Positions 2,887-26,054 of a stretch of 64,000 nucleotides of DNA are shown one piece after another. Source of the DNA: a virus; the IMG/VR virus record IMGVR_UViG_3300026521_000527, positions 64,001 to 128,000 of that record; one strand, written 5' to 3'. Position numbers and translations under genes: made by a program. The notes under the pieces are model-generated. The model was not told where the DNA came from. It searched no databases and saw only the letters and a list, made by a program, of their open reading frames with translations. Each line of letters opens with the position of its first letter. Positions within the stretch are counted from its first letter, which is position 1.

Positions 2887-3135
2887 CTATTGAATTGATT
2901 CGTGATCTAATGTTTTTAATTCAGATTCAAGGCCAATTAAAATTTTATTTAATTCATCGACATCTAGAGTTCCGAATAACTCTTGAATCTGGTCTCTGTA
3001 TGGATTTATCTGCTCTTCGAGAATTATTAATTGCTTTTCAATTTGCTTTTTTTCCTCGAGCAATTTATTTAATTCATCTTTATAATGCTGAGCTTTTTGT
3101 CTAAGCTCGGAATCTGATATACTCTGTTGATTCAT
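2887..3135 (-). CDS. Small coiled-coil hypothetical protein
   Basis: 82-aa ORF with heptad pattern; purine-rich RBS (AAAGGAAGG) lies inside the upstream polB fragment. Confidence 0.6.
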   Translation of the reverse strand: MNQQSISDSELRQKAQHYKDELNKLLEEKKQIEKQLIILEEQINPYRDQIQELFGTLDVDELNKILIGLESELKTLDHESIQ

Positions 3136-4396
3136 TATATTTTCCTTCCTTTATATCTTTATCAATTTTTGAAATAATTTCAGTACTAACTACTTGGAAT
3201 AATTTTATTCCGTAAATTTTTCCAGCTGTTGTTATTGAATTACCTATAATTGGTGAAGCAAATTGCCAAGTAATTAAACCATAAATACCATAAAGTGAGT
3301 TCAAAGTAACTTTAATTCCCTGCTGCATTGAATTAAATTGAGCTTCTCTTAGTGCAATAAATATTGGTATTTTTTCATGCGCATTTATTTTTTTATTTAT
3401 TTTATGAACTTCAAATTCAATTGTAGTTAGTGAAAAAAGACGTCCCTCTCTGGATTCAGTATCCTCAATCTCATTCAGGATTTGATTAGCCTGCCTTTCA
3501 CTTAAATATAAACCATTCTCTGGGTTTAAAAAGAACTCTTTAGTTTCTTCTGATAGTTTATTATACGCTGATAAAATAGCACCGAGCATTAGACTTCTGT
3601 TTTTAATTATTTTCCTATCATCTAATCCTATTTTAATTAATTCAACATCAAAAGCTAAATTTTCATCATGAAGATCATAAAGCACGCCATAAGGGTTAAC
3701 TATTTTGCGAGAAAATATTTCCCTCATTTCTTTAAGATTTAATTTTTTAAAACTAACTTTAGTTGAATTAAAATTCAGCATAATATAAATATATTTATTG
3801 CGATATTTTTGATCAAAATCATGATTGAAAAAAACATAATCTATTGTCGTTTGATTATATCCTCTATTTTGCGGGCTAACCCAAGTTACCAATTCAAGAA
3901 TTGGATAAAGATAACTTCTAAGTAAAAAATATGAAGTATCATCTTTAGGTTCAAAAATATCTTCTAGAGTTCCTTGGAACTCTAGAAGTTTTCTCAGAAG
4001 TGCTACATAATAATTTGAAGCAAATTCCAACATATCTGCTTTATTCTGTACTGTTTTTCTAGTAAAAAAATCTTTTAATGAACCTATTATAGCATTTGAA
4101 AATCCGGAACATGCTTGGTCAATAATTTCCGGATTATCCTTTTTCTTAGTAAGAACTGTGGCTATTAAATTTAACGTGCGATCAATAATCGCTGGTTCAT
4201 ATATTCTTGCGAATAAAGTATCATACCCAATATTTTGATGCATTAGACTAATTGGATATAGTGCATTAGCATCATTACTACTAACAACCATATCCGGTTC
4301 CAGTCCATAAATTCCAGGCACTGGTTGCTGAACATAAGCACCCTGCACTTTTAGATGCATCGCGAAATTTTTAATTTCTTCAATGGTAAATGCCAT
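3101..4396 (-). CDS. polB: Family B DNA polymerase, middle fragment (palm motif A + fingers motif B)
   Basis: GAYVQQP..G, DANALYP (DxxSLYP) and KVTLNSLYG (KxxxNSxYG), SITTAG. No YGDTDS and no exonuclease motifs. Confidence 0.9.
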   Translation of the reverse strand: MAFTIEEIKNFAMHLKVQGAYVQQPVPGIYGLEPDMVVSSNDANALYPISLMHQNIGYDTLFARIYEPAIIDRTLNLIATVLTKKKDNPEIIDQACSGFSNAIIGSLKDFFTRKTVQNKADMLEFASNYYVALLRKLLEFQGTLEDIFEPKDDTSYFLLRSYLYPILELVTWVSPQNRGYNQTTIDYVFFNHDFDQKYRNKYIYIMLNFNSTKVSFKKLNLKEMREIFSRKIVNPYGVLYDLHDENLAFDVELIKIGLDDRKIIKNRSLMLGAILSAYNKLSEETKEFFLNPENGLYLSERQANQILNEIEDTESREGRLFSLTTIEFEVHKINKKINAHEKIPIFIALREAQFNSMQQGIKVTLNSLYGIYGLITWQFASPIIGNSITTAGKIYGIKLFQVVSTEIISKIDKDIKEGKYNESTEYIRFRA

Positions 4397-4416
4397 TTTT
4401 AAAAACCGTTTCTATT

Positions 4417-5262
4417 TTAAAGTTTTTTCATATTTAGATAATATTTTCTCAGATTACCAAGTACTGGGGCAATTGATATATCATTTATATCTGTCGGACA
4501 ATCAATTTTATTAATCATCTTATAAAAATTATTCCTGATAAGGACCGCTTGTTTGACAAGAGTTTTTAATTCAGTAAAGTTATACGCTATACCAACTGCT
4601 TTATAGAACTCTCTGGTCTTTCCTGTCATTCTAATAACATCAATTTTAAATTTATTATCTTTGAATGTAATTCTTACATTTTTAATTAACGATTCTGGTT
4701 TACTACCACCAACTATTTTTTCTTTATAGTTCAATGACACTCTTGGGTTTAATTTAATAATGTCTCCCATAATATCTTCACGATATTCTAGTGCATCTTT
4801 TAGAGCCTTTTTAGCTTCAATTCTATTTCCGTATTCGAATTTAAATAATCTTGAATGGTGTACTCCATCTTTATTTCTTAACATCACTGTCCAATTAGCT
4901 GGACTATTCTCGTCTTTAACATATCTTGTTAAATATATCCCTCTGTAATCATTTTCAGTAATATCAATTCCATGATACATTAAAGCAATCTGTGTTGTTC
5001 CTGGTTTTGTCCCTGATCTCTTTAAAAATTTATACCAAAGATAAGCGTATTCCAATGCTTCCTCTGATGTATCAAAATCACAAACTTTGATAGTTTCATT
5101 AAAAGATTTTGAGTTCTTTGTAACTCTAACCAAGATTGTTTTGAATTCTGAGTCGATATATAAACCTCTTATTTTCGAAAGATCAATGCATGTTAAATTC
5201 AGTTCTCTTTGACTCAATGTTTCGATAAAATTTTGAAGATTGCTTTTTGTATAAGATGTCAT
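4417..5262 (-). CDS. Protein with tandem AP2-like DNA-binding repeats
   Basis: Three segments of the form RG(I/L)Y..beta strands..A..A..R (e.g. YRGIYLTR...WTVML...RLFKF...AKKALKDALEYR). No HNH motif seen. Confidence 0.45.
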   Translation of the reverse strand: MTSYTKSNLQNFIETLSQRELNLTCIDLSKIRGLYIDSEFKTILVRVTKNSKSFNETIKVCDFDTSEEALEYAYLWYKFLKRSGTKPGTTQIALMYHGIDITENDYRGIYLTRYVKDENSPANWTVMLRNKDGVHHSRLFKFEYGNRIEAKKALKDALEYREDIMGDIIKLNPRVSLNYKEKIVGGSKPESLIKNVRITFKDNKFKIDVIRMTGKTREFYKAVGIAYNFTELKTLVKQAVLIRNNFYKMINKIDCPTDINDISIAPVLGNLRKYYLNMKKL

Positions 5263-5349
5263 TTTATTTCCTTTTGATAATATATTTTGATGTTTTGGTA
5301 TTCAGCGTATTAAAATTATTAAAATTAATGAGAAAATCTGGGCACAGGA

Positions 5350-5385
5350 AATCGGAGTGGTTGGCTTAAGCCAACCACTCCGATT
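5350..5385. repeat. Perfect 36-bp palindrome downstream of folE, flanked by GGCACAGGAA
   Basis: aatcggagtggttggctt|aagccaaccactccgatt read directly. Confidence 0.95.
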
Positions 5386-5396
5386 ATTTAAATTAT

Positions 5397-6407
5397 TTAA
5401 AGGTCTTTTCTAAACTCTTCATCATTATATAGTCCGCCGTATCTCTCAGATGTAAAACAACCATCTTTTGATTTAGCCCCTCTTATGCTTTCACATGTGT
5501 GGACTATATTATTTAAACGAACATAAACATTTTCTGTTCCAGCTGCCTCAGAAACCTTTTTATAAATTTCTTCAGTAAGTTCTTCTTGCAACCAACCTCT
5601 TTGTCCAACCCAATCAACTATTCTTTGTAATTTACTAATTCCAAGAACGTTATCTTCTGGAACATAAGAAATTATTGCATAAGCATCTTCTCTAAATGTT
5701 GATGAAAAAGGAGCAGCATGATGACTACAAACTGCAGTTAAATCAACACGTTTTGTAATTCTATGTTTGATTTTATTATTATTTGGAAATGTTGCCATTC
5801 TTGGAGGTTTGCTCCATCTCCCACTCATTAACTCTCTATCGTCTGTTGTTGATGCACCACACCACATTTTAGCAATTCTTTGGGCAGTTCCAATATTACC
5901 TGTTTCCAAATCGCTCATTACATTTGGATCACTGAGGTCAATTTTCATAGCTCTGAATGATTCCTCAATAAGTTTACCAGTTTTATATCTCATAATAAAA
6001 TGGGCTTCATCTGTCCATTTATAATCTTGCTCAAATATATTTTCATTTATTTTAAAAATAGGAGCCTGCTTATAAGTCTGCAGAGCTTTTGCAAATCCAA
6101 CCACCGTGTTAAATTTGCGATGATATGCCTCAAGTATCTCAAAGAATTCGATAACTTTAGGGTTCGGACTATCTGTTTCATAAAGTTCAATTACTTGATC
6201 TATGATCGGGTTCCCAAACTCAGTGTAATAACCTCTAGGTAAATATAATGTATAGGAATTATTTTTTTTATCGAACTCAATATTTTCCCAAGGTTTATAA
6301 AAATTATTTAATCTAATTTTTACATTATCAGATGATTCTATATGATCTTGGGTACAGATTCTATTTTCCTGTTTTTCAGGAAAATAGATTATTTCAGTAA
6401 CTTCCAT
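5397..6407 (-). CDS. folE: GTP cyclohydrolase I with ~120-aa N-terminal extension
   Basis: DPN...TAQRIAKMW, CSHHAAPF, GISKLQRIV...LQEELT, HTCESIRG. Confidence 0.92.
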   Translation of the reverse strand: MEVTEIIYFPEKQENRICTQDHIESSDNVKIRLNNFYKPWENIEFDKKNNSYTLYLPRGYYTEFGNPIIDQVIELYETDSPNPKVIEFFEILEAYHRKFNTVVGFAKALQTYKQAPIFKINENIFEQDYKWTDEAHFIMRYKTGKLIEESFRAMKIDLSDPNVMSDLETGNIGTAQRIAKMWCGASTTDDRELMSGRWSKPPRMATFPNNNKIKHRITKRVDLTAVCSHHAAPFSSTFREDAYAIISYVPEDNVLGISKLQRIVDWVGQRGWLQEELTEEIYKKVSEAAGTENVYVRLNNIVHTCESIRGAKSKDGCFTSERYGGLYNDEEFRKDL

Positions 6408-6418
6408 TTAAGTTTCCT

Positions 6419-6853
6419 TTACTCTGCTTCTGTTGCTTCTGTTGCTTCTGTTGCTTCTGTTGCTTCTGTTGCTTCTGTTGCTTCTGTTGCTTCTGTTGCT
6501 TCTGTTGCTTCTGTCGCAGCCATTAAAATTTCAATCACACTTTCAAGAACCTGTTTGCCTTCTTCTTCAGTATACTCATCTGGACCTGCAAAATCAAGTG
6601 TGCTTAGATTCTGGTTGTCGTCAAAATTTAATATAATTTCACAAGGGATTTGTGCATCCATGTGTAGTTTAGAAACAACATTGAATACCATAACATCTTT
6701 ATTATCCCTAGTTTCTTTTTGGGCAGCAATTATATAAACACCAGTTTTTTCCATAGCCTCCATTATTTCAGGATTCTCGATAAAAGGTGCAGACCCATCC
6801 ATTTGATAAGAATCCATCTCTACTTTATTTTCAACATTTTCAACATTTTCCAT
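6419..6853 (-). CDS. Acidic hypothetical protein with (ATE)10 C-terminal tail
   Basis: 144-aa ORF with RBS-like AAAGGA upstream; tail encoded by a 9-bp tandem repeat. Confidence 0.75.
   Translation of the reverse strand: MENVENVENKVEMDSYQMDGSAPFIENPEIMEAMEKTGVYIIAAQKETRDNKDVMVFNVVSKLHMDAQIPCEIILNFDDNQNLSTLDFAGPDEYTEEEGKQVLESVIEILMAATEATEATEATEATEATEATEATEATEATEAE
6426..6515. repeat. Tandem 9-bp repeat (gcttctgtt) x10, in-frame
   Basis: Nine identical units plus one single-mismatch unit. Confidence 0.95.
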
Positions 6854-6864
6854 GATAATTCCTT

Positions 6865-7446
6865 TTAATTTAATTGTGCTTCTGGTGCAGTTAACATGCT
6901 ACCAATACCATGATTTCTATAGAAATCAAAATTCATCGTGCCGATAGCCAACACTTTCTGTACTTGTTCCAAATAACTACAAAAAGTTTCGATCTGAAAT
7001 AAAGACTCAATTTCAAATAATGTTTGATTTCCCTTATGTAAAATATTAAAAACTATTTTATCTTTATTAGGAAATCTAATGTATGCTGGTTTTTGATAAC
7101 CAGCATACTCCTCTAATGTACTCGATCCAATTAATATAAATGATGTATTCGAAGCATTTTCAATTATCTCCTTTCTAAGTTTAATTGACTGAATTAATTT
7201 TATAATATTTGCCAAATCCAATTCTATTGTCGGTTCATCTCTAAGATCCCGAGGAATTATATTTGGTGAAGATTGTTTGGAAAATCTCATGATTAGACGA
7301 CCGACTTCATATTGCAATTTAAAATTAATTATAAATTGACAACCCTCATCTGAATGGAATCCTTCAGTTGATCCATAAACTGGAAAATTACCGAAATGAA
7401 GATTACTTTTAAGAGTAATTTTTTGGGAGGTTTTAGATGAAGACAT
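6865..7446 (-). CDS. Hypothetical protein, possibly Whirly/PC4-like ssDNA-binding fold
   Basis: Two beta-rich-then-helix units (GRLIMRFSKQ...TIELDLANIIKLIQSI; IVFNIL...LFEIESLFQIETFCSYL). Confidence 0.3.
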   Translation of the reverse strand: MSSSKTSQKITLKSNLHFGNFPVYGSTEGFHSDEGCQFIINFKLQYEVGRLIMRFSKQSSPNIIPRDLRDEPTIELDLANIIKLIQSIKLRKEIIENASNTSFILIGSSTLEEYAGYQKPAYIRFPNKDKIVFNILHKGNQTLFEIESLFQIETFCSYLEQVQKVLAIGTMNFDFYRNHGIGSMLTAPEAQLN

Positions 7447-7487
7447 AATTTACTTCTTCATATTATTTAAAATCTTTGTCATTAGAT

Positions 7488-7542
7488 GATGCCTGGCATC
7501 CATAAATGGGTTAATATATACCGGCCAGAGATGGGGTGCCAG
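7488..7542. other. GC-rich intergenic stem-loop with two alternative pairings
   Basis: gatgcc-t-ggcatc local hairpin (7488-7500) competes with ctggcatcc (7493-7501) / gggtgccag (7534-7542). Confidence 0.5.
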
Positions 7543-7564
7543 TACTTTACTTAATTGGATTTTT

Positions 7565-7990
7565 TTAGTCTGATCTTGTTGCATAGAACTCCTTTATAAG
7601 TTTTTTCTGTTTTTCATGTGCAACCGTTATTGCATCTAATACGTCTGGAACATGATCATGATATTTTTGATGACAATGTTTGCAAAGCACTATATAATCA
7701 ACTTCTCTTGCGAAATGTTTTTCCATAACCTCTTCAACAATTTGCAAATCAGTATATTCATATAAATCATCAAGATCAATATGTTTCTGAACGCATGTTT
7801 CAAAAATATCAAAGATTGTTAAAGGATGATGATGGGATTCTGGTTTAACATATTCGAAACTTTCTTTGCAGATAGGACATTCCTTTACTGGATATTTTGT
7901 AATTTTTTGCCAGCTCGCATAACTCATACTACCTCTTGCAATTTTTACTAAGTGTTTAATACATTTTACGAAAGATCTTTCATTAGTCAA
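7565..7990 (-). CDS. HNH-like zinc-binding protein / putative endonuclease
   Basis: CPIC...ESHHHP...IVLCKHCHQKYH pattern. Confidence 0.6.
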   Translation of the reverse strand: MTNERSFVKCIKHLVKIARGSMSYASWQKITKYPVKECPICKESFEYVKPESHHHPLTIFDIFETCVQKHIDLDDLYEYTDLQIVEEVMEKHFAREVDYIVLCKHCHQKYHDHVPDVLDAITVAHEKQKKLIKEFYATRSD

Positions 7991-8025
7991 ATCGTAATTG
8001 TACCAAATATTACTTCCTTTTTTAT

Positions 8026-8877
8026 TTATCCCAAGTATCCTCCTTTTAAATTTATCTCTTTTTTATAAGCACTATTTAATGCGAATTTGAATTTAGTCAA
8101 AGTATTATGATCTGTTGTGATATATTCAATAAATTGATCTCCATCCTCCGAAAGAGACATTATGTAATCATTGTAAATTATTGATCTATTTTTACTAACA
8201 TAAAATTTAAATGAAAATCCTTTTCGGTAGTATCTTTTTTTATTTTCGACATCAATAAAAATAAAAAGAATTTCATTTGTCTTTTTTAGAACTTTTATAT
8301 CAAAAAGAGTTAATTCTAATTCATCAATTATTTCTTGATTTATCTCTTTTAAAAAAGTATTGTCCGATTTGTATTGCTTAAGAAGTTCTTGTTCTTTTAA
8401 ATCCTTTTCTTTTTCAGCAACTTCGAGTGCTTTAGTAACAATTTCTTTTCTATCTTTTGATTTAATATTTATTTTTTTATCAAGTGTTTGGCTTTGGATA
8501 TTTTTAGCCTCATGTATACTTAATGCAGCTTTTGAGTCAATTAACTGACAATCCCTTAACTTATGAAATTCTTCTAACTTATTATCTCGTTGAGGAAAAA
8601 ACTTCCAGGTGTTAAAACGAGAAGCGATTGGATTCCATTTTACCAATAACTGAATAGTTTTTATACTTTCAATTGGATCTGGAATATTAAATAGATCGTT
8701 AAAATATTTGCCGAAAATCCTTGTTAAGTGTGGACTGAACCAGAATTGTTCATGCAAATAAGGTACTATACCATTGAGTCTAGATTTATTAAAAATAAAA
8801 TCTTCTGGTATTTTAGCACCTGAAAAAATTAAGTTATTAACCTGACTAAAAGTAATCTGTTGTGACTTTTGCATCAA
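8026..8877 (-). CDS. Hypothetical protein
   Basis: 283-aa ORF in the operon, no recognised motif. Confidence 0.7.
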   Translation of the reverse strand: MMQKSQQITFSQVNNLIFSGAKIPEDFIFNKSRLNGIVPYLHEQFWFSPHLTRIFGKYFNDLFNIPDPIESIKTIQLLVKWNPIASRFNTWKFFPQRDNKLEEFHKLRDCQLIDSKAALSIHEAKNIQSQTLDKKINIKSKDRKEIVTKALEVAEKEKDLKEQELLKQYKSDNTFLKEINQEIIDELELTLFDIKVLKKTNEILFIFIDVENKKRYYRKGFSFKFYVSKNRSIIYNDYIMSLSEDGDQFIEYITTDHNTLTKFKFALNSAYKKEINLKGGYLG

Positions 8878-8886
8878 TGACCTTTA

Positions 8887-9570
8887 TCAACTACTTCCGT
8901 AGGTATATGATTTATTATATAATTCTTTAAATTTTTTAACCTCTTTGGAGTACGTAAAAAATTTATCCAGATTTACTGTCTTTGTCACTTTATCGAATTC
9001 ATAATGCCCTAAACAATAATCATTAATATATCTCGGCTCAAAATTAAACCCATAAGTTATTGAATCTCCTTGAATTGAAATCTCAGGATGAGTCTCTTTT
9101 AACTCTTTTAACACTTCTACCGGAATTACCCTAAATTTTACTACAACTTTGGTTTCATCATTAAATTTAACGATATCTGGATTTAATAAAATATAATAAT
9201 CTGCTTCAGTTACTGAAAGACCGGATGGTTTTTTCCTTGGGAGATTCCCAATAGAATTATCTTCTTTATATGTCTCAATAAAAATATTCTTAGATACAAA
9301 GCTTGATATTTTAATTTCCAATTTTGTATTATCAGATAATTGAACATCGAACTCTGGTGCAAATCCTAAAGAATAATACTTAGGTTGAATACCATTGTTT
9401 AATAATTGGCAAAATTTCTTCGAGACTAAAGTCTCAAAGAAATAATCCAAGTATTCTTTATCAGATCTTGTCCAATCAGAAAGAGTTCCAATATTTATTT
9501 TTTTATCTTGAGTCCAGTAGAACTCTTTCATTGCGCAAGAACCTTTACATGACTTTTCGGAGTCTCCCAT
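8887..9570 (-). CDS. Putative PD-(D/E)XK nuclease
   Basis: PEFDV...LEIK...NIFIE...PSGL..TEADYY, a restriction-endonuclease-like motif set. Confidence 0.55.
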   Translation of the reverse strand: MGDSEKSCKGSCAMKEFYWTQDKKINIGTLSDWTRSDKEYLDYFFETLVSKKFCQLLNNGIQPKYYSLGFAPEFDVQLSDNTKLEIKISSFVSKNIFIETYKEDNSIGNLPRKKPSGLSVTEADYYILLNPDIVKFNDETKVVVKFRVIPVEVLKELKETHPEISIQGDSITYGFNFEPRYINDYCLGHYEFDKVTKTVNLDKFFTYSKEVKKFKELYNKSYTYGSS

Positions 9571-10136
9571 AACTCAACTCCAGTTACTTTGACATGTTCA
9601 AGATCTTTTAATTTATTAGTAGCTATTCTTAGTAACCAGCCAGCAATATTTTCAGAAGTTGGTATAAAATCGACTAATACTATCCCTTCATATTTTTCTT
9701 TTACAGCTTTATCTTTTTCTTCATCGGACTGCAAATCAATACCTAATTTATTCAGATCTGGTATAAAATATTCATCTATTTTAAATACATTTTTTAACTC
9801 ATTATCCTCAAATAATCTTGGTAATTCATCTTGCAAAAGAGGATCATTTATGTCAAAAAGCATTTTGTGATCCAATACATCATCTATAAAATCTTTCATG
9901 AACCCAATCATTTTAAAGTCTAAAACCATTCCGGTATCTTTTATATTGTCACCTGGAATTGTCTCCTCGAGTAAAATCTTTGCTCTATAAGAATGCCCAT
10001 GAAGATGCCTACAAGCACAGCACGAATCTCCTCTATGAGTATATTTTGTATCAAGAGTTTGACTCCATACCCTATGTCCAGCTTCCCAGTGAAATTCTTT
10101 ATCGATGATTGTTTTTGTAGTTTGTATTCTTTGCAT
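9528..10136 (-). CDS. queD: 6-carboxy-5,6,7,8-tetrahydropterin synthase
   Basis: FHWEAGHRV, CRHLHGHSY, MVLDF, PTSENIA, LWETPKS. Confidence 0.93.
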   Translation of the reverse strand: MQRIQTTKTIIDKEFHWEAGHRVWSQTLDTKYTHRGDSCCACRHLHGHSYRAKILLEETIPGDNIKDTGMVLDFKMIGFMKDFIDDVLDHKMLFDINDPLLQDELPRLFEDNELKNVFKIDEYFIPDLNKLGIDLQSDEEKDKAVKEKYEGIVLVDFIPTSENIAGWLLRIATNKLKDLEHVKVTGVELWETPKSHVKVLAQ

Positions 10137-10189
10137 AATTTTCCTTTAGCTTTAACTATTTGCTTTAATATTTTTATATACTGTTTAAC

Positions 10190-10221
10190 TTGGACTAGAG
10201 TGATTAATCACTCTAGTCCAA
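10190..10221. repeat. Perfect 32-bp loopless palindrome upstream of queD
   Basis: ttggactagagtgatt|aatcactctagtccaa. Confidence 0.95.
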
Positions 10222-10338
10222 GGCTAGTTTAAAAATCTTTTATATTGATAAATTTAAAAACATTATGTTGGTTTCTGACTGACTCTTTCTTTTTTGATTT
10301 AATTTTAATTAATTTAAAAAATATTTTATTTATGAATT

Positions 10339-13830: not shown

Positions 13831-15378
13831 TTATTTTACTAATAAACCTTCTTCAAGAGATATCTGAATACCTTGAACACCTTTTAATGGAATACCACCT
13901 TGTGTCATAATCCAAAAACTAAATACATTTTTAAAGATTTCAGCATTATACACCTGTTCGATATCACTATAGTTATCACTGAATGATAAATATGTAAATT
14001 TTAATTTAGGATGTTTTTCTTTAATATCGAGAATTGCATCAAAAACTTCTTTATGACTTGTACCTCCACAAGCAATCCTTTTTTGAATAAATTCAGAGAT
14101 ACTTAATTTATCATTCTTTTGGAATCTTTTAATTTCAGCAATTTTATGATCATGAATAATTATATCAACGAACACTGTTTTTTCAACAAGTTCATTAATT
14201 ACGAAATTTATTTTTTTAAGATCAGAATCAGACATTGAGCCACTTTGATCTATCGATATTATCGCAGCAAGATTATCCTCATAATAAATTCTACCAGGCA
14301 TTGGTGAAATATGTCTAAATTTAGATTTTAATTTCCCCCAGGTTTGATCACTCTTATTCGTATGGTGTCTTACTAAAGCCTGCAAGCTTCCTTTTAATAA
14401 ATGAAACCAGTCAACTGGAACTTCGTAATCAACACCAAGATCTCTAAGGGTTCCAGATGAACTGGAACCAGGTTCTCTTGTTTTATCTAAAAGATCTTTA
14501 TATGCCCTCTCAAGCATCTCTTTAGCCTCGTTATCAATGTTCTCACCGTTTGATCCATTTAAATCATCTTCATTTTCACCAAAATTCGGTTTTCCTTCAA
14601 GTTCAAGAAGGGTTGAAGTATTCCCCATAACTGTAATTTTCGTCATCGTACCTAAACCGTCTATTTTGGTACACTCGATTTCAGCATCTTTTAAAATACT
14701 TTCAAGAATTTCGACTTGTGATAATTTATTTGGAGATAAATTTTTATCGTAGAGTCCATTGAAGTTTTCATTATATAATGAAAACATATGACCTTGTCGC
14801 GCTTGTTCAATTAAGTAACCATTAATATAATAATCAAAAGCGTAATTAAGAATTTGATGCATGGCTTTTTCCGGAATATCAGGACGCACTCTTTTTATGA
14901 CTTTTTTATATTTAATATTTAAATAAAAATCATAATGTCTGTTCATAATATGTAGAGTTTCATGTAAATATATAAAAGCAACTTGCGCAGTAACTTTTTG
15001 ACTATATAGCGCAATTTTAAAAAAATCATCCCAGGATTCATCTTCTTTTTTAGATAATGTTATGTTTACAACTAACTCATTTGATTTATTTTTATCAGTT
15101 TCTGCTTTGATAAATCCACCAATCCTAAAATCATCATAATCAAAATTTTTATTTTGAGAAATATGTTTTGGGTTTTTTTCAAATGCTTCCTGCATCTGAG
15201 CAAGTTCTGCGTTTGAAGTCTCGTGAAATTCAAATTTCACTGGCATCAACATCAATAACTCAAGCAAATCTGGATTGCTTGAGTATGCTGATTTCATAAT
15301 AGGGACTGATTTTACCATCAGTCTACTAGTCATTGCGCTATATTTTTTAATTAATTTATATTGGTCTTCCGATATCAT
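13831..15378 (-). CDS. HEXXH metallopeptidase-like + VWA domain protein
   Basis: LHETLH...D.YIN; C-terminal IDQSGSMS MIDAS, GGTS, SD. Confidence 0.8.
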   Translation of the reverse strand: MISEDQYKLIKKYSAMTSRLMVKSVPIMKSAYSSNPDLLELLMLMPVKFEFHETSNAELAQMQEAFEKNPKHISQNKNFDYDDFRIGGFIKAETDKNKSNELVVNITLSKKEDESWDDFFKIALYSQKVTAQVAFIYLHETLHIMNRHYDFYLNIKYKKVIKRVRPDIPEKAMHQILNYAFDYYINGYLIEQARQGHMFSLYNENFNGLYDKNLSPNKLSQVEILESILKDAEIECTKIDGLGTMTKITVMGNTSTLLELEGKPNFGENEDDLNGSNGENIDNEAKEMLERAYKDLLDKTREPGSSSSGTLRDLGVDYEVPVDWFHLLKGSLQALVRHHTNKSDQTWGKLKSKFRHISPMPGRIYYEDNLAAIISIDQSGSMSDSDLKKINFVINELVEKTVFVDIIIHDHKIAEIKRFQKNDKLSISEFIQKRIACGGTSHKEVFDAILDIKEKHPKLKFTYLSFSDNYSDIEQVYNAEIFKNVFSFWIMTQGGIPLKGVQGIQISLEEGLLVK

Positions 15379-17436: not shown

Positions 17437-17470
17437 ATTTTCTCCTATAAAAATTAAGCACAGAAGGTGC

Positions 17471-17557
17471 AGGCTATGTTGGTTCAAGATATGTTGGTTT
17501 ATAAACCAACATATCTTCCGAAGGAATAAAATTCCTTGTTATAAACCAACATAGCCT
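17471..17557. other. Nested inverted repeats containing a perfect 32-bp palindrome, flanked by GCACAGAAGG
   Basis: Outer arms 17471-17484/17544-17557; aagatatgttggttta|taaaccaacatatctt at 17486-17517; small hairpin 17521-17537. Confidence 0.9.
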
Positions 17558-18127: not shown

Positions 18128-18139
18128 ATTAATCTCCTG

Positions 18140-18571
18140 TTAAAATAAATCATCAGCTGACACATCATCATCAACTGATAGTCCAAAATCATCTTGTGAT
18201 TCATCTTCAAACATTTCGCCAAGAACTGAGTGCCCAGTCACTTTACTCATATAAATTCTTGGCTTATCATCCTTAAATTTATCTATATATTTTTCTAAAT
18301 CCTCAAGGAACATTTCTTTTGATTCTTGTATTAATTTATCTCCTTCTATTGTATTTGGGATTGGTAGTGTTACATATTTATAATCTAATTTATCCGCCAT
18401 TTTATTGAGTAGACCAAGACTTGGTCTACTCTTTCGACCAAGCATAAAAAATCTATAACCCGAATAATTAGAAGGTAACCCAATATCTTTTAAGAATTTG
18501 GCACCGACTGGAATCTTTTCGAAAATTTTCTTTAATGAATGAAGAAAATGATCATCTATTATAATACTCAT
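18140..18571 (-). CDS. Putative HTH (XRE-like) protein with acidic tail
   Basis: FLKDIGL...YRFFMLGRKSRPSLGLLNKMADKL resembles the XRE PS..L.K.A..L pattern. Confidence 0.4.
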   Translation of the reverse strand: MSIIIDDHFLHSLKKIFEKIPVGAKFLKDIGLPSNYSGYRFFMLGRKSRPSLGLLNKMADKLDYKYVTLPIPNTIEGDKLIQESKEMFLEDLEKYIDKFKDDKPRIYMSKVTGHSVLGEMFEDESQDDFGLSVDDDVSADDLF

Positions 18572-18588
18572 GTTTAACCTTTTAAAAT

Positions 18589-21210
18589 TTATACTTTATT
18601 AAATTCTGGATCTACACCTTTTGCTTGTAGAAATCTATCTAAATCTTTCACATAACTTTTTGCTCCAGTATAAGAATAATAATGCATATTTGCTCGCATG
18701 TTTTTTTCCCGAGATGATGAAACATTACCGTCGTCACTCGATTGTGACGCATGAATTATATCAAGTGCTCCTTTTGCGCCCTGTTGCCAAGCCATATACA
18801 CATTTCTTAAATTCGCAGGTAATCCATGATTATTTAGATATTTAATAATGTACTTTTCGCGTTCAGCGCACATTCTATCCTGATTCTCCGGAGTCCATAT
18901 TTCAGGACTATTTGGATCCAATCCAATTTTTTTAGCGTACTCGTTTGCAGTACCATCTAAAAATTGATACGCTCCTCTAGCACCTGTTGTTGGATTTATC
19001 GCTTCGTATCCTTCAGGAACATTACCCGCAAGTCCAGTTGATTCAACTTTAGCAATTTCCGCACAATAAACTCCAGCTGATATTTTATCTAGAGTTTTTG
19101 ATGAACCATTACCTTCAATTCTAAAAGCTCCAGCAAATTGCTTATCCCAATATGCTACACGATTACCTCCTTTACCAGTAGTGTATCTTTTTTCAATACT
19201 TGCTCCTTTACATGGATTTGATTTGGTACAAGAACTTGCTGGACGATATGGAGTAACTCTAGAACTACTTGCCATAACTTCAGTTTGACTTTTAGCAATC
19301 CCAACATGATGCACTCGATTAATATCAGCAGTTGTAGATAAAAATATAATATCTCCAGCTTGAACTTCATCATAATCTATTGGGGACGCATATCGTCTAC
19401 ACCAATCTGCTTGTGCCTGCGAACCTTTTGGAAAAGCATCTTTTGACATTCTCCCACCATATTTTTTTAAACCAGTTGCTAAACACACAGAGGTCATTAC
19501 AAAACCACTACAATCATACCATCCAGATTCAGCACCACCCCAAAGATATCTAAATCCTTTTTTAATTAAGGCTTCCGCTGTTTTAGCAATATCATTTGAT
19601 GTTCCTTTTATATTCAATTGCCCATTATAAGGAGAACCAGCACCATATATAACACCATTTATAGAAACACTTCCAGTTGATGGATTAATAGTTTCTATTA
19701 TATTATTCTTTAATTTGGATATCTGTTTAGAAATATCTAGAAGTATATTGGTATCTTGAGGTTCAACATTCTCAGTCATTAAGAACTCAATCTTAGCTTT
19801 ACATTTAAATGTTTTTTGATTATCTTCATTATTAGTCTCGCTTTCAAAGAATGAAATAGTTTCGACTACAGTTGGTGTGAAAACCCACTCAATTCTATAA
19901 GCAGGCCCTTTTCTAGCATTTTCAATAACAGTATTATCTTCACTAATAAATTTATCTTTAAAAAGGGCTTTTTTTATATCCAAATGTCCCCAGGCAATAT
20001 TATCCACTTCATAAGTTTCATAATTAGGGTTCATTTCATAATACTTTCTAAAATAACTTAATTGTTTAATTAAATCATTCTCAGATAAAAAAGAATATAT
20101 TCTTTTTACTTTTGGGTTAGGAATTTGCTTAACTTGTAGATGATCCCCACATGAAATATACTTTTCAGTGATTTTATTAATTGATGTTGAATCAATTATG
20201 GTTGGTACATTATCCGATGTCTGGACTAATTGAATTAAAGGATCTTTTGAATTAGATTCAAATTTTAATTTATCAAAATATGGTCTATCCTCTATTTTAC
20301 TGATTTTAAAATATCTAGCTTCGTCCAAATATGTTTGATGTCTAGGTCTAATCAAAGGTGTAAGAAATTTATCTTCTTCCCATGACCGAGGAATATAAAA
20401 ATCAGTTACAATTAGCTCTGTTGAGTTTTTTGAATTTAATGGCAAATCATCTTGAATCCAATTAAAAGGCGTAAGATATGGAGGGTAATTTTTAAAAAAT
20501 TCTTCTAGAATTTTAAAATTATTATCTGATTTAAATACATAACCGCTTGTTGGAATAGAGGTTGATATTGTTTTTAAATCGGTTGAACTATCATTCATGT
20601 AAATAAGATGAGTTGAGTTCGAACTCAACTCATCTGAATTTTCTATATAATCACCATAACCTTCGGTTCCCATTTTAGGAGATACTTTTGAACCATAATT
20701 AGTGTATGTTTCTAAAAATATTTGCTCTATGTGTCCGAGCAAAAATATACGTGGATTTGATTTACCATATTTAAGACTGGTTTGACTAGTAAACCCAAAA
20801 TTATTTTCAAGAAGCATTCTTCCAAGAGTCCAAGATATAAGTCTTAAGTTCACAGAGTATAAATTATTTCCACCAATTCTTTTCGTTTCAATTTTTCCCA
20901 TCTCCTCAATTTTAAAAACATTACTACTTGATGAAAGATTCGTGGTATCTGTATTGTCTTTTTCATGAATATAACCAGATGTTATTGTAATTGATATTGA
21001 ACACCCACCGGATGTAATTATATTTAACTGATCTATAGTTAATAATTTTAATTCTAGATATAGTTCAGTTTTATGAGATTCATAAGACTTTAAAACTCTA
21101 AGTTCATTGATGTTGTAATGAGTTAAATCAAACTCTTTTATTTGGCCATTTTCTTTTGAATCTATAACTTCATGAATCTTAATTTTCAGATCATTAAAAT
21201 AGGCTTGCAT
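18589..21210 (-). CDS. Tail/baseplate-associated peptidoglycan hydrolase (NlpC/P60 + lysozyme-like domains)
   Basis: YLWGG...YDCSGFV, GDIIF, HHVGI (NlpC/P60); ES.G..Y.AIN..TGARGAYQFL, PENQD, AWQQG (lysozyme-like); long N-terminal region. Confidence 0.8.
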   Translation of the reverse strand: MQAYFNDLKIKIHEVIDSKENGQIKEFDLTHYNINELRVLKSYESHKTELYLELKLLTIDQLNIITSGGCSISITITSGYIHEKDNTDTTNLSSSSNVFKIEEMGKIETKRIGGNNLYSVNLRLISWTLGRMLLENNFGFTSQTSLKYGKSNPRIFLLGHIEQIFLETYTNYGSKVSPKMGTEGYGDYIENSDELSSNSTHLIYMNDSSTDLKTISTSIPTSGYVFKSDNNFKILEEFFKNYPPYLTPFNWIQDDLPLNSKNSTELIVTDFYIPRSWEEDKFLTPLIRPRHQTYLDEARYFKISKIEDRPYFDKLKFESNSKDPLIQLVQTSDNVPTIIDSTSINKITEKYISCGDHLQVKQIPNPKVKRIYSFLSENDLIKQLSYFRKYYEMNPNYETYEVDNIAWGHLDIKKALFKDKFISEDNTVIENARKGPAYRIEWVFTPTVVETISFFESETNNEDNQKTFKCKAKIEFLMTENVEPQDTNILLDISKQISKLKNNIIETINPSTGSVSINGVIYGAGSPYNGQLNIKGTSNDIAKTAEALIKKGFRYLWGGAESGWYDCSGFVMTSVCLATGLKKYGGRMSKDAFPKGSQAQADWCRRYASPIDYDEVQAGDIIFLSTTADINRVHHVGIAKSQTEVMASSSRVTPYRPASSCTKSNPCKGASIEKRYTTGKGGNRVAYWDKQFAGAFRIEGNGSSKTLDKISAGVYCAEIAKVESTGLAGNVPEGYEAINPTTGARGAYQFLDGTANEYAKKIGLDPNSPEIWTPENQDRMCAEREKYIIKYLNNHGLPANLRNVYMAWQQGAKGALDIIHASQSSDDGNVSSSREKNMRANMHYYSYTGAKSYVKDLDRFLQAKGVDPEFNKV

Positions 21211-21222
21211 ATTAATTCACCT

Positions 21223-22053
21223 TTAATCTAATTGTCTATCTATATGAATCCTAGGGCTGTATGTTATACCAAGTGATAGTGCTTTTCTGCTAGTTGCATC
21301 CATTGATTTTTTCCAAACGGTGCTATCTTTATCCAGAGGATCATTTGGTGTAAACGGCATTAAGATTATATTTTTTTTTGGAACATTTAATTCCTCAGTC
21401 AGATATTTTATAAACATCTGAGTAGTATTAAATGAAATTGATTCATCAGTGTAATCATAAATAAATTTATAGAATACATTATATTGACGAAGATATGAGT
21501 TTATATTATTAAAAACATTAAAGTACATAGCATTGACTTCAGCTTGAGTTAGTTGATCCTCATAACAACTGGTTGCGTTTATTTTTGGAGATATTGTTAA
21601 GGTTGGAGTTACTCCTAAATCATGAATAATTTCATTAAATGATTTTATTAAAGCCAAACAATTCTTTTCATCACTTAAAAGGTTTCCATTTGACTCAATT
21701 CCAAGGAATTCAAAATGTTTAAAATTTACCGAGTCTGCAGTTCTAAATATATCTGGAAACCACTCCATAAAATGTAATGGTTCACCACCAGTGATCGTTA
21801 ATCTCTCAGGAGATACTTTTTCAAGTTCTTTTGCCATATCGATCATCAATTTACGGTCATCAAATGCTTTATATTGAGGAGCATCACCCCATGAGAATTT
21901 AGTATCACAGAAAGAACAAGCTGCCGAATAACAACCAGCTAACCTTAAATATAAACTAGGCTCTCCTATTGAATTTCCTTCACCTTCTAATGAAATAAAC
22001 CACTGAGATATTTTTGGAGCAATTACTGACTGGTTAAAATTTAATTCTTTCAT
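21223..22053 (-). CDS. queE: 7-carboxy-7-deazaguanine synthase (radical SAM)
   Basis: SLEGEG..IGEP..YLRLAGC....CSFCDT, TITGGEP, IESNG, SPK, SPRIH. Confidence 0.92.
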   Translation of the reverse strand: MKELNFNQSVIAPKISQWFISLEGEGNSIGEPSLYLRLAGCYSAACSFCDTKFSWGDAPQYKAFDDRKLMIDMAKELEKVSPERLTITGGEPLHFMEWFPDIFRTADSVNFKHFEFLGIESNGNLLSDEKNCLALIKSFNEIIHDLGVTPTLTISPKINATSCYEDQLTQAEVNAMYFNVFNNINSYLRQYNVFYKFIYDYTDESISFNTTQMFIKYLTEELNVPKKNIILMPFTPNDPLDKDSTVWKKSMDATSRKALSLGITYSPRIHIDRQLD

Positions 22054-22094
22054 ATTTTTCCTTTTATATTATTATTTAATTTATTTAAAAAATG

Positions 22095-22126
22095 ATTAAT
22101 GAGTGAGTCTAGACTCACTCATTAAT
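22095..22126. repeat. Perfect 32-bp loopless palindrome overlapping the polB-exo stop codon
   Basis: attaatgagtgagtct|agactcactcattaat; a T-run follows on the minus strand, so it is terminator-like. Confidence 0.95.
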
Positions 22127-23162
22127 CCAATAAAGGAAAGAATATTTCCCTATTGAATTTTTTGACACGAGTTATTTTAGACTGTTTTGTATAAATTAAA
22201 TTATTTCTATAACTATACATTCTGCTTCTTCCAGAGACTGCCGCACTCATTGGACTTGTATTATATTTAGTCAACATCCAAACCTGCTCCATAAATTCTA
22301 ATTTTTCATCAATTTTAAATGTCAAAATAGTATCTAGAAGGTTGTATGTTAAAAATCGAACTATGTTGTTTATGTACTCATAATTCATATCCTCCAAATC
22401 CAATTTTGTAATTCCAAGTTCTTGCATTGCTACAGTACCCAATTTATAATTTGGTAATGATGAACCGAGACCGCTTCCACCTTGATCAACTGGTTTATAT
22501 AATTTTAATAGATCAATTAATAGATAATCCGGCCAATCATAATTATTATCTGAGAATTTATGAACCTCATTAAATTCAGAAATAAAACTATAAATGCTAT
22601 CGCCTGCTAATCTATGTCCTCTGTTTACAACATAAGGGTCATCAAAAATACTACTATTAAACCCAATAAGAAAAAGAGGATTATTACTCCGAGTATCTAA
22701 GAAGAACTCTTTTAAGAGTTCTTCTTCACTCTGAAATGTTCTAATTTCTAACTCCATTCCAGGAACTTCATAAACCGGATTTTCTTTAATTAATTCATTA
22801 TATAATTCTTGAACCCCAGTTTTTAATACACTTGCTTCTGTTATATTTGAATTATATGGTGTACAATAAATAATAGCTTTATTTAATAAGTTATTATACA
22901 CTGCAATTGAATTAACAGGATAGTCAACTCTTACCGCATCAGGAAATACCTCAGGATCATAATGAACCTCAATATCATAATATGACTTATTAAGTGTTTT
23001 TTTGACTGGATCGCTCTCCTTAAACTTAGTCATGAAATCTTGAAATTCACTCTCATCTGGGCTCAATTCTAGATTATAAAACTGGTGAAATTTTAATTCA
23101 CCAGTTTTAAGTGACTGCATCATCTTATAAAGATCGCCAGAATTTAATTTATATTTATCCAT
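22122..23162 (-). CDS. polB: Family B DNA polymerase, N-terminal 3'-5' exonuclease fragment
   Basis: YDIEV (Exo I), IGFNSSIFDDPY (Exo II), IDLL.LYK, YKLGTVA..EL, YNLLD (Exo III). Confidence 0.87.
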   Translation of the reverse strand: MDKYKLNSGDLYKMMQSLKTGELKFHQFYNLELSPDESEFQDFMTKFKESDPVKKTLNKSYYDIEVHYDPEVFPDAVRVDYPVNSIAVYNNLLNKAIIYCTPYNSNITEASVLKTGVQELYNELIKENPVYEVPGMELEIRTFQSEEELLKEFFLDTRSNNPLFLIGFNSSIFDDPYVVNRGHRLAGDSIYSFISEFNEVHKFSDNNYDWPDYLLIDLLKLYKPVDQGGSGLGSSLPNYKLGTVAMQELGITKLDLEDMNYEYINNIVRFLTYNLLDTILTFKIDEKLEFMEQVWMLTKYNTSPMSAAVSGRSRMYSYRNNLIYTKQSKITRVKKFNREIFFPLLD

Positions 23163-23176
23163 TTATATAAACTCTT

Positions 23177-23986
23177 CTAGAATAATTTATTTTTTAATTG
23201 AGTTATTTTTGACTCAATTGAAGTTATTAAATCATTAATCTCGTCATCTTTCGTATTTTTAAATTCGTCCAGAATATTTGGATGAACTTTAAGTATATTT
23301 TTTAAGGTTTTGGTGTAGCTGTATGATTTGGGACTCTTTTGAGTGCTTTGTAACTCATCATAAGAATATTTATCAACCAACTCAATATATAAGTCTGATG
23401 GTATTTCAATATCCCCGACAATAATATGAGTAGCCAGTCCTCGTTGACACATTTCATAAGCACCGAAATATAAATCATTACCCGATAATATATTATTGAT
23501 CTCATCGGAAGTTAATTGTGGAACCAACTCGTCTATTATATCAAAAGTTAATTTATTATAATATTCAGTATATGAAGTAATCACTTGTCCTCTTCCAGAT
23601 ACAGTTGATTTATAATTATGAAACATTAATGTACTTGATTCATATATTACTCTTTTTTCTCCAATCATGAAGATATATGCTGCCGCGCTCATCGCCTCCG
23701 GATTAATTTTAGTAATTATTCTTGCACCAGTGTTTTGGAACTCATTTATCAATCTATATGCTTCATCCATATAACCCCCAGGCGAAGCAAGATTTAACTC
23801 AATTATATCTTTAGATTGTATTTCTTTAATATTTTTAATTATATTAAATAAACTAACTCTTGACCCCTCAAGCTCATGAATATAAAAGGAGTGAATTTTT
23901 ACATCATGATTTTGAATTAAGCCAATGTTATTTTGATTATAGCTATGAAAACACTCTTTATCAGAATATGTATCTTTTCTCGCCAT
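23177..23986 (-). CDS. clpP: ClpP-like serine protease
   Basis: LASPGGY, AMSAAAYIFMIG, LMFH, DLYF.A.E....GL. Confidence 0.8.
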   Translation of the reverse strand: MARKDTYSDKECFHSYNQNNIGLIQNHDVKIHSFYIHELEGSRVSLFNIIKNIKEIQSKDIIELNLASPGGYMDEAYRLINEFQNTGARIITKINPEAMSAAAYIFMIGEKRVIYESSTLMFHNYKSTVSGRGQVITSYTEYYNKLTFDIIDELVPQLTSDEINNILSGNDLYFGAYEMCQRGLATHIIVGDIEIPSDLYIELVDKYSYDELQSTQKSPKSYSYTKTLKNILKVHPNILDEFKNTKDDEINDLITSIESKITQLKNKLF

Positions 23987-23990
23987 ATTT

Positions 23991-24461
23991 TTAATCCTTT
24001 ATTAAATCTTGAATTGCTGACGCCAGATCTCTTATCTCCCATAAAGCATCTTTAGAAGTTCTAAGCTTAATAAAATTATCTAGTTTGTCGTGACTAATTG
24101 TCATAGTTAAAGTTGTTTTGTAACTCTCAGGTAAAGCGTATTTAATTTTATCATTGGATTTATTTTGAAGAATTAATTTTCTGACATTTTCGAGTGCCGA
24201 AATACTGGCTCGATCAATTTCAACATCTCCTGTCATAACTAGATATTTTTCAGCCCTGATAAAATCATCTGGTTTCTTTTTTTTAAATTTATCTTCCATC
24301 TTCAATTCTTTTAAAGTATATCTGGTTGATTTTACACTGAAGACAGCTTCATGCCTAACTATCTCTTGCAGACATCCTCTAGAAATACCCTCAATAAAAA
24401 AAGTGTAAAATCCAAAATTAGATGAGTCATCACCTATAAAATGTTTTAATGTTATTTTCAT
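23991..24461 (-). CDS. thyX: Flavin-dependent thymidylate synthase, copy carrying the central/C-terminal motifs
   Basis: YTFFIEGISRGCLQEIVRH...SVKSTRY, LPESYKT, LRTS..ALWEIR. Start moved to MKITL, which follows GGAG. Confidence 0.85.
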   Translation of the reverse strand: MKITLKHFIGDDSSNFGFYTFFIEGISRGCLQEIVRHEAVFSVKSTRYTLKELKMEDKFKKKKPDDFIRAEKYLVMTGDVEIDRASISALENVRKLILQNKSNDKIKYALPESYKTTLTMTISHDKLDNFIKLRTSKDALWEIRDLASAIQDLIKD

Positions 24462-24462
24462 T

Positions 24463-25053
24463 CTATTCTCCCTCAAAATATTCTTTATATAATTCATCTA
24501 TTTTCTTTTCGATTGGAAACACACCAACTTTACCAAATAATATTACAGTACCATCAACAACTTCTATTTTTTTATCATTTGAGTCAGTAATAACTCCACT
24601 TTCATAAAAATTATATTTATTTCCTTCTATGTCAATTATTTTTTTATTTATCAATAATTGAATAATTTCAGAATAATCATATAAATCTACAATTAAATCC
24701 CCTAAAATTTTTTTATTTTGGTATAATGTTCTTGCATTTATGACACCAACTTTCGTCGATTGATTATAAAAACTATACTGATCGGTTTTTAAGAACTCAA
24801 TTATACTTTTTTGAGCTGCATTAATAGATGGGTTATTATATGAACTATCTATATTTAATTTAAAAATTATATTCAGATGAGCAAGTATAGAGAAATGTTT
24901 AAATTTTTTACCAACTCTTACAATGAGTTTTTTATCACTCTCTCCTATGGTATCACATACAGAATCAGATTTTGAAAAACTATCCCAACATGTTCTTGTG
25001 GCATTAGCCGCAACAATCAAAGGTGTCTCTTTTAATAGTGTAAAATTTTTCAT
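24463..25053 (-). CDS. ThyX-like protein carrying only the N-terminal ThyX segment
   Basis: TPL..AANATRTCWDSF...D..LI.RVG.KFKH.S.L.HLN and INARTL; lacks the RH...S.RY motif. Confidence 0.7.
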   Translation of the reverse strand: MKNFTLLKETPLIVAANATRTCWDSFSKSDSVCDTIGESDKKLIVRVGKKFKHFSILAHLNIIFKLNIDSSYNNPSINAAQKSIIEFLKTDQYSFYNQSTKVGVINARTLYQNKKILGDLIVDLYDYSEIIQLLINKKIIDIEGNKYNFYESGVITDSNDKKIEVVDGTVILFGKVGVFPIEKKIDELYKEYFEGE

Positions 25054-25073
25054 CTATTTCCTTTTTATTTTTA

Positions 25074-26054
25074 TTATGAATTACGATGCGACATAAACTC
25101 AATATTATTTCGCCTAGTTTCATCAGAAAATATCTTTTGAAACTGATCAATTTTTTTATCAAGATTAAATTCTATAATTGACTTTAAATCAAATTTAATA
25201 TCGATTTCTTTAAAAACCTCGAAAACATTTTTAATTTCATCATCGGTCATATCTACTGGGAATGAAATTGTTTTTAATTTATGATTAATATCCTCCTTTT
25301 GAATTTGGTATTTAGTCTTACTTGGATGTTCGTCATAATACTGCAATAATCTTGATGGGTTTATAATTAACTGAACTTGAAATAAACTCTCACCTGGCCG
25401 CAAAACATCCCTAAATAAATAATTATAGAGCATCGCACCAATTACTTGTGGAGGTACCTGTTTGTATTTATTATTAGACCATTTTTTCGGTATACCAAAG
25501 TCAGTAAAATGTTTCTGTTGAACTGATTTTATAATTCTATTTAAGTATTTTTTATAAATTCTTCCATATATCTCTTTATAAAGAGTATCTTCATCCTGAA
25601 TTGATAAATCAAGGAGTACTTTTTTATAAATTTCAGTCAATAAATCAAAAACTATTCGAGTACTATCAGACTTAAGAATTTGACCACCTGTTTTCTTAAG
25701 AGCTAAATTTTCAAATAATTTTCCTTCATCATACATCTTTGCCATTCCGTAATTTTTTTTAGTATTATACATTGCCCGTGCGGCGATAATCTCACTCTTA
25801 AAAAACATATGATTATATTTTGGATTAACATTACCAAATTTTTCGACGGTTTCTGTAAAAATATCCCGATATATTTTATTAATATCCTCGGCCATATCCA
25901 GACAAAATTTTACGGTCCTATTTAAATCATCCAATTTATTAAATGGTATTTTAGACTGGGAGTAAGATGAATCTGTATCCCCATATAAAGACCATTCACT
26001 GAAGTCAATTGTTTCAATAAACCCAGGTTGTATTAAGTTATTTAAAACATTCAA
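25074..26054 (-). CDS. polB: Family B DNA polymerase, C-terminal fragment (motif C + thumb)
   Basis: LYGDTDS, FKSEII, KKNYG, TGGQILKSD; own RBS (GAGGAG). Confidence 0.9.
   Translation of the reverse strand: MNVLNNLIQPGFIETIDFSEWSLYGDTDSSYSQSKIPFNKLDDLNRTVKFCLDMAEDINKIYRDIFTETVEKFGNVNPKYNHMFFKSEIIAARAMYNTKKNYGMAKMYDEGKLFENLALKKTGGQILKSDSTRIVFDLLTEIYKKVLLDLSIQDEDTLYKEIYGRIYKKYLNRIIKSVQQKHFTDFGIPKKWSNNKYKQVPPQVIGAMLYNYLFRDVLRPGESLFQVQLIINPSRLLQYYDEHPSKTKYQIQKEDINHKLKTISFPVDMTDDEIKNVFEVFKEIDIKFDLKSIIEFNLDKKIDQFQKIFSDETRRNNIEFMSHRNS

Follow-up and report, generated by a model that had tools for sequence, protein, structure and literature searches.

Three separate genes encode the parts of a T4-like family B DNA polymerase in an uncultured jumbo phage

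The stretch of DNA analysed here (the window) comprises 64,000 nucleotides, positions 64001-128000 of the 136,864-bp linear IMG/VR virus record IMGVR_UViG_3300026521_000527, which derives from an uncultured jumbo phage in a hydrothermal-vent metagenome. The record is approximately 49% complete according to CheckV. The window has a guanine-cytosine content of about 29%, and nearly every gene lies on the minus strand. Three of its open reading frames (ORFs), designated N, M and C, each encode a different portion of a family B DNA polymerase (PolB). Their positions in the window are as follows.

22122-23162, minus strand: N piece, 346 amino acids (aa); shortened N-terminal domain and 3'-5' exonuclease domain, stopping before motif A.
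3101-4396, minus strand: M piece, 431 aa; the half of the palm that comes first and holds motif A, then an insertion specific to the lineage, then the fingers, which hold motif B.
25074-26054, minus strand: C piece, 326 aa; second half of the palm with motif C, the KKxY motif, the thumb and a conserved C-terminal tail.
26055-26070, minus strand: ribosome-binding site of the C piece, GAGGAG, read directly in the sequence.

Together the three pieces total 1103 aa. Each has its own start and stop codon, and other genes lie in between. In the order of transcription, C is followed by three inserted genes (1.9 kb) and then by N, with M about 18 kb further on, so that the genes for M (fingers and motif B) and C (motif C and thumb) are 21 kb apart. 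The C piece starts at a TTG codon with the Shine-Dalgarno sequence 6 nt upstream, and its start overlaps the end of an upstream 824-aa ORF by 17 nt. An initial annotation, made from the sequence alone, had described a PolB fragmented into three ORFs at these positions, with non-overlapping sets of motifs and about 1100 aa in all. The ORF table, the motifs and the profile matches agree with that description, and the ORF table gives the same order of transcription (C, N and, some 18 kb later, M). The annotation also termed the arrangement scrambled. The order is indeed non-colinear, but it is a cyclic rotation (C-N...M) and says little alone, because three genes on the same strand allow only two cyclic orders.

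The catalytic motifs of the polymerase are distributed among the three pieces. The exonuclease motifs of N were read from the translation as Exo I (D63/E65), Exo II (N169/F173/D174) and Exo III (Y273/D277), and these motifs, of the forms DxE, Nx3FD and Yx3D, were invariant in 22 sequences. M carries motif A (D42..L46 Y47 P48, of the Dx2SLYPS type) and motif B (K362..N366 S367..Y369 G370, of the Kx3NSxYG type), both invariant in 29 sequences. In C, motif C (Y24-G-D26-T-D28-S29, of the YxDTDS type) and the KKxY motif (K99 K100 N101 Y102) are followed by the thumb; in the alignment of C pieces the DTD was absent only in rows whose head is replaced by an intein. The aspartates of motif A (D42 on M) and motif C (D26/D28 on C) lie on different polypeptides, as the initial annotation had stated.

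Profile searches placed the pieces side by side along a single T4-type enzyme. The Pfam domain of N is PF03104 (expect value, E, 7e-13) and that of M is PF00136. Against phrog_262, the PHROG T4-type DNA polymerase family of 856 positions, N matched positions 99-349 (E 1e-32), M positions 380-549 (E 2e-16) and C positions 574-767 (E 2e-13); C also matched phrog_1918. Profiles built from each piece and its relatives were then mapped to RB69 gp43, where N aligned to residues 106-357 (E 2e-24), M to residues 393-432 and 463-591, and C to residues 613-819 (E 1.6e-15). The comparison with RB69/T4 gp43 that had been proposed for these pieces thus assigns them to separate, non-overlapping stretches of gp43. 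The break between N and M (N|M) falls at the junction of the exonuclease and N-terminal domains with the palm (RB69 residue ~380), and that between M and C (M|C) at the junction of the fingers with the palm (RB69 residue ~600), about 25 aa upstream of DTD|S. RB69/T4 gp43 has the same set of domains and catalytic motifs and is the best profile and structural match of every piece. It is, however, a single chain of 898-903 aa without the ~185-aa insertion that follows motif A, and its Exo I is preceded by about 50 additional residues; the window instead has three ORFs, an arrangement kept in relatives. A Pfam scan at E values up to 1 detected only PolB domains in N, M and C and no intein or Hint domain. 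The ends of the window pieces at N|M and M|C showed no terminal Cys/Ser...HN-Ser/Cys/Thr signature, and no further PolB signal was found in the 136.9-kb contig besides N, M and C.

The insertion in M was placed by the gap between the two stretches of the M profile that align to RB69 gp43.

3647-4201, minus strand (M residues ~66-250): conserved insertion of ~185 aa between motif A and the fingers, corresponding to RB69 residues ~432-463.

It is mostly helical with a small beta unit and was modelled with a predicted local distance difference test (pLDDT) score above 90. Nine of its residues (P150, Y156, S161, E168, W172, N177, G179, G237 and H243) were invariant across 29 sequences, and in a structure search the insertion resembled nothing beyond generic helical bundles (Z ≤6.5). 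The possibility that it is an intein or endonuclease in decay was considered and rejected, because the insertion is highly conserved and confidently folded and matches no such domain.

The C-terminus of the C piece (25074-25160, minus strand) forms a conserved tail with the consensus ...KKLDxFxKLF.... It could bind a clamp in the manner of the tail of T4/RB69 gp43. No clamp of the gp45 type (PF09116) was detected in this half of the genome.

Relatives of the polymerase were sought in IMG/VR. Searches with the single N or the single M sequence returned no relatives, and an alignment of M relatives was needed; it recovered six contigs, and five records were searched with all three pieces. Four of these relatives (35-59% aa identity) contain one copy of each piece, with C upstream of N on the same strand. 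The records are listed below.

G001: 281 kb, 100% complete; gap between C and N 1.9 kb; M 24 kb away.
G003: 227 kb; C adjoins N; M 38 kb away.
G005: 92 kb; C adjoins N; M 9 kb away.
G004: 273 kb, 97% complete; C adjoins N; M 72 kb away on the opposite strand.
G002: fragment that carries M only.

G001, G003 and G004 have exactly three phrog_262 matches each, corresponding to the three thirds of the enzyme, and no family A polymerase. No intact PolB or PolA was found in the four relatives, two of which (G004 and G001) are 97-100% complete. In G003 and G005 the start of N overlaps the preceding gene by 4 nt, and this C-N overlap suggests that the two pieces may be translationally coupled. According to the initial annotation, neither frameshifting, hopping nor cis-splicing could rejoin the pieces. 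We reached the same view: the pieces are not rejoinable at the nucleic-acid level because other genes intervene and because M lies on the opposite strand in G004.

The split also extends to a large number of metagenomic sequences. M had 110 homologous clusters (35-86% identity), with lengths of 390-459 aa except for a few matches of 243-306 aa on short contigs and one fused protein, P0095. N had 142 homologous clusters, nearly all of 345-370 aa. Stand-alone N and M, the latter of 405-455 aa, occur on contigs of up to 290 kb, and several N and M clusters have longest contigs of equal size (e.g. 290373, 260474 and 178762). In an exhaustive search for C, the representatives were mostly 300-340 aa long and began just before motif C. 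No M relatives longer than 755 aa were found, which is weak evidence. These results indicated that the breakpoints are shared by relatives, a check that the initial annotation had called for, with boundaries kept down to about 35% identity and in more than 100 clusters.

P0095 is the only relative in which M and C are fused.

L095:640-2877: P0095, M+C fusion gene.

This natural fusion of 745 aa has the canonical order, with M over residues 12-417 and C over residues 428-744. The neighbours of P0095, including the upstream gene, are not the N piece; therefore, that phage has a different gene order. When full-length PolBs were used to root a tree of the C parts, P0095 was nested among the split forms (Shimodaira-Hasegawa-like approximate likelihood ratio test, SH-aLRT, 90), a position that points to either re-fusion or repeated fission.

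Structure models were generated for M, for P0095 and for the three chains together. The AlphaFold2 model of M had a pLDDT of 86, and its best VIA match was RB69 gp43 (3kd1_E, Z 10.8, 219 residues aligned). Foldseek with M alone returned weak RB69 rows (E ~0.1), and the wide VIA search recovered the RB69 match. M folded alone was confident except for residues 20-43, the strands of motif A, and in the model of the fused P0095 a strand (E40-47) forms at the motif A position. The low confidence of M alone, together with the strand in P0095, is consistent with a motif A region that needs the C half. The P0095 model matched RB69/T4 gp43 (Foldseek E ~1e-12), and its only long low-confidence stretch, residues 417-439, is a linker that coincides with the M|C break. 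A three-chain prediction of N (22-346), M (10-405) and C (10-288) scored 0.72, and a control in which N was swapped for an unrelated protein scored 0.70; the prediction is given no weight for or against a complex.

To assess selection, the pieces were compared with those of a relative that was sampled elsewhere (L096 and L097; 78-88% identity). The approximate ratios of nonsynonymous to synonymous substitution rates (dN/dS) were 0.047 for N, 0.068 for M and 0.075 for C, as low as or lower than those of neighbouring genes. The fragmentation of the polymerase is real, conserved across the lineage and under purifying selection.

A split that is real, conserved and selected, together with the lack of rejoining and of an intein, makes a multi-subunit PolB with a two-chain palm the best reading of the locus. 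It is likely that the three ORFs encode subunits of one functional T4/RB69 gp43-like PolB. From the pieces, their motifs, their conservation and the selection on them we infer the physical assembly, stoichiometry and activity of this enzyme, which would be a non-covalent N:M:C heterotrimer. N would supply a reduced N-terminal domain and the proofreading exonuclease. M would supply the palm strands with the motif A aspartate, the ~185-aa insertion, and the fingers with motif B. From C would come the thumb, the KKxY motif that contacts the primer, and the palm hairpin bearing the aspartates of motif C. This hairpin would pair with the palm strands of M, and since motif A is on M and motif C on C, the two-metal site would be completed only once M and C associate. 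Rather than a peculiarity of one genome, the three-gene architecture would be ancestral and fixed in a large clade of jumbo phages that have not been cultured and that also encode a PhiKZ-type multisubunit RNA polymerase.

Several points weigh against the heterotrimer. The dN/dS values are approximate because dS, at 1.3-1.8, is near saturation. Because the window contig is only about 49% complete, it is the complete relatives G001 and G004 that show the lack of an intact PolB. Finally, N may be a separate proofreader that binds only loosely, and not a stable third subunit. A more elaborate account holds that an obligate three-subunit core is fixed in a deep clade, that the unlinked M, as a separately expressed module, gates assembly of the active site (for example by timing or compartmentalisation of replication), and that the lineage presents a live series of fission and fusion: three pieces, four where a split intein is accompanied by a homing endonuclease, and M+C fused again. 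As a joint proposition this account is tentative, and we regard it as doubtful.

The alternative that survives best concerns the role of N. M and C could form an obligate heterodimer, with N as a separate or transient proofreading exonuclease comparable to free DnaQ/epsilon. The mapping to RB69 places the N|M break at the boundary of exonuclease and palm, a looser interface than the palm sheet shared by M and C; free-standing exonuclease subunits are common; and N is the most conserved piece, with a mean column identity of 58%. N nevertheless retains the PolB-type exonuclease fold and the segments of the N-terminal domain that pack against the palm in gp43, always lies next to C in the genome, with the 4-nt overlap noted in G003 and G005, and has a counterpart in PhiKZ, where the exonuclease-bearing chain is a stable subunit (PMC13648687). 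We consider this alternative unlikely.

The pieces could also be remnants of a broken gene, with replication carried out by a host polymerase or by one encoded in the unsequenced half of the genome, for which the incompleteness of the contig leaves room. The initial annotation had named decay, with a dN/dS near 1, and an intact PolB elsewhere as results that would overturn its proposal. The dN/dS values of 0.05-0.08 are those of maintained genes, the motifs are intact, the boundaries persist in the distant clusters described above, and the complete relatives G001 and G004 encode no other PolB or PolA. Remnants of a broken gene are thus very unlikely, and the subunits of a functional polymerase remain the preferred reading.

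Covalent joining after translation, by trans-splicing of split inteins into one or two chains, has a basis in the lineage, where split inteins occur in the C piece of two relatives.

L094:800-2385 (G003) and L093:1-2385 (G005): C pieces with a split intein at DTD|S, the classical pol-c site.

In G003 the head of the C piece ends ...YSDTD and is followed by an N-terminal intein half (IntN); the next gene encodes the C-terminal half (IntC), ending ...ILVHN, then Ser and the rest of the extein. In G005 the C piece is likewise broken at DTD|S, with a 373-aa free-standing endonuclease-like ORF between the halves. Proteins P0115 and P0127 have the same IntC head. Four further proteins of 483-583 aa (P0120, P0121, P0123 and P0126) also match phrog_27191 and are longer by 160-250 aa, which follow the head with motif C and precede the remainder of the piece; these inserts are probably contiguous inteins at pol-c. 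Where the C piece is split by an intein, the polymerase is therefore encoded by four genes and requires one trans-splicing step. A split intein is also present in the PolB of Nanoarchaeum. The description of the polymerase as intein-free in the initial annotation accordingly applies to the window pieces and does not extend to relatives, some of which have split or contiguous inteins within C. The N|M and M|C breaks themselves were intein-free in all relatives examined. The window pieces contain neither IntN nor IntC. Beyond the fused homologue P0095, M has a tail of only about 20 aa and C a head of about 11 aa, which are too short for intein halves, and C has its own YGDTDS. With no intein domain and no terminal signatures, ligation of the window pieces by trans-splicing is very unlikely.

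The assembly of the locus was checked against other data. A separate Logan assembly of the probable source run, which is not an independent sample, contains a 7.5-kb contig that covers 22098-26200, from C to N, with zero differences. Identical low-depth fragments from two other studies extend across the start and stop of the C piece. No RNA run was present among the public runs listed as holding the sequence. A misassembly, against which the initial annotation had advised a check, is not indicated: although the genome was assembled from a metagenome, a chimeric contig or collapsed rearrangement is scarcely credible when the C/N/M layout recurs in at least five other assemblies from other samples and the Logan contig matches from C to N.

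Split family B polymerases are known from other phages. PhiKZ DNAP-N (gp82) and DNAP-C (gp50) form a stable, active 1:1 PolB that resembles RB69, with a structure from cryo-electron microscopy (2026); DNAP-N contributes D562 of motif A, and the other chain contributes D426 of motif C (PMC13648687). PhiKZ and the window phage share a family B enzyme encoded by unlinked genes, aspartates of motifs A and C on separate chains, a large insertion after motif A, and multisubunit RNA polymerases. The PhiKZ enzyme, however, is in two pieces rather than three, with its break after motif A and inside the palm insertion, whereas the two window breaks precede motif A and separate motif B from motif C. AR9 g132 is a polymerase of the PhiKZ type, with motif A (SSLYPSII) at residues 482-489 of 554. 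In these phages the N subunit bears motif A, and one C subunit combines the fingers, motif C and thumb; in the window, motif A is on M, and the elements of the C subunit are divided between M and C. The window enzyme is nearest to T4-like gp43 (24-32% identity), and its identity to AR9 is 24.8% for the N piece only. By tblastn at 1e-5, none of 50,697 phage records matched M, C or P0149.

Two-piece enzymes also occur closer to T4. The gp43A and gp43B of Aeromonas phage 25 co-purify and are active (PMC2988022). As in the window, gp43A/B of Aeromonas phages 25 and 44RR represent a T4-family PolB in separate polypeptides. These phages have one break, with adjacent, colinear genes and a seg endonuclease or untranslated spacer at the break; the window has two breaks, a non-colinear order and an unlinked M. 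The small subunit of the Methanothermobacter PolB carries motif C, so that its break would be comparable to M|C. Two-gene PolBs have been described in Methanothermobacter thermautotrophicus and group B magroviruses (PMC5434244). These resemble the window polymerase in having a break inside the catalytic domain and no intein. They are archaeal or from archaeal viruses, however, have a single break, and keep the exonuclease fused to motifs A and B. Fractured genes combine split inteins with a free-standing endonuclease (Dassa et al. 2009, PMC2677866). The arrangement of the C piece at pol-c in G003 and G005 is of this type, whereas the window pieces lack intein parts, and neither the N|M nor the M|C break coincides with an insertion site of inteins.

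A composite active site is not new, because the two-piece PolBs of PhiKZ (PMC13648687) and Aeromonas phage 25 (PMC2988022) are known; these enzymes also set a precedent for a polymerase assembled from separate chains. What is new relative to the known split PolBs is the presence of two breaks, the breakpoints, which differ from those of PhiKZ/AR9, and the unlinked M with the order C-N...M. No description of a three-piece PolB was found in the published literature, though coverage of the literature was incomplete and its absence is not proven. Replicative polymerases are usually treated as single catalytic chains, and the split PolBs reported so far are in two pieces; here the enzyme appears to be divided at two boundaries, exonuclease/palm and fingers/palm, and this split persists in over 100 sequence clusters as well as in complete genomes about 280 kb in size. 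It provides a natural test of which PolB domain interfaces tolerate being non-covalent and natural parts for the engineering of split polymerases. The lineage further permits a direct comparison of fission, intein fracturing and re-fusion of one essential gene. For annotation, the locus carries a warning: a PolB ORF labelled 'partial' in a jumbo-phage metagenome can be an entire subunit.

The genes inserted between C and N were identified by Pfam and PHROG scans.

23177-25053, minus strand: genes inserted between C and N, two ThyX ORFs and a ClpP-like protease.
24463-25053 and 23991-24497, minus strand: ThyX ORFs that together cover ThyX.
23177-23986, minus strand: ClpP-like protease.

The insert is also present in the 78-88% identical relative (L096) and is missing from the more distant relatives G003, G004 and G005, in which C abuts N. 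ThyX is encoded as two overlapping ORFs (23991-25053, minus strand; also L096:5687-6762). The 196-aa ORF matched positions 3-64 of the Thy1 profile weakly (E 0.002), and the 168-aa ORF matched positions 59-186 (E 4.5e-24). The relative likewise has ThyX in two ORFs (199 and 159 aa), so a programmed frameshift or another genuine gene fission may underlie the split.

The 824-aa ORF immediately upstream of the C piece (26038-28512, minus strand) matched nothing in Pfam or PHROG. Its identity to the ORF at the corresponding position in an otherwise 78-91% identical relative is only about 29%, so it either evolves very fast or has been replaced.

Elsewhere in the window, beta-like pieces of a PhiKZ-type multisubunit RNA polymerase are encoded at 33401-35374, 40588-42561 and 43456-44787 (minus strand; phrog_3295, 3015, 2962, 2986 and 2987). 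The phage thus pairs a multisubunit RNA polymerase with a T4-like, not a PhiKZ-like, DNA polymerase. An RFC-like clamp loader is encoded at 45439-46455. Genes for a QueC-like protein, a QueE-like radical-SAM protein and GTP cyclohydrolase I (29588-30931, 21223-22053 and 5397-6407, minus strand) are scattered around the polymerase pieces, and their presence suggests 7-deazaguanine modification of the phage DNA. Between N and M lies a 515-aa HNH endonuclease-like ORF (13831-15378, minus strand; phrog_1314), which places mobile endonucleases in the region.

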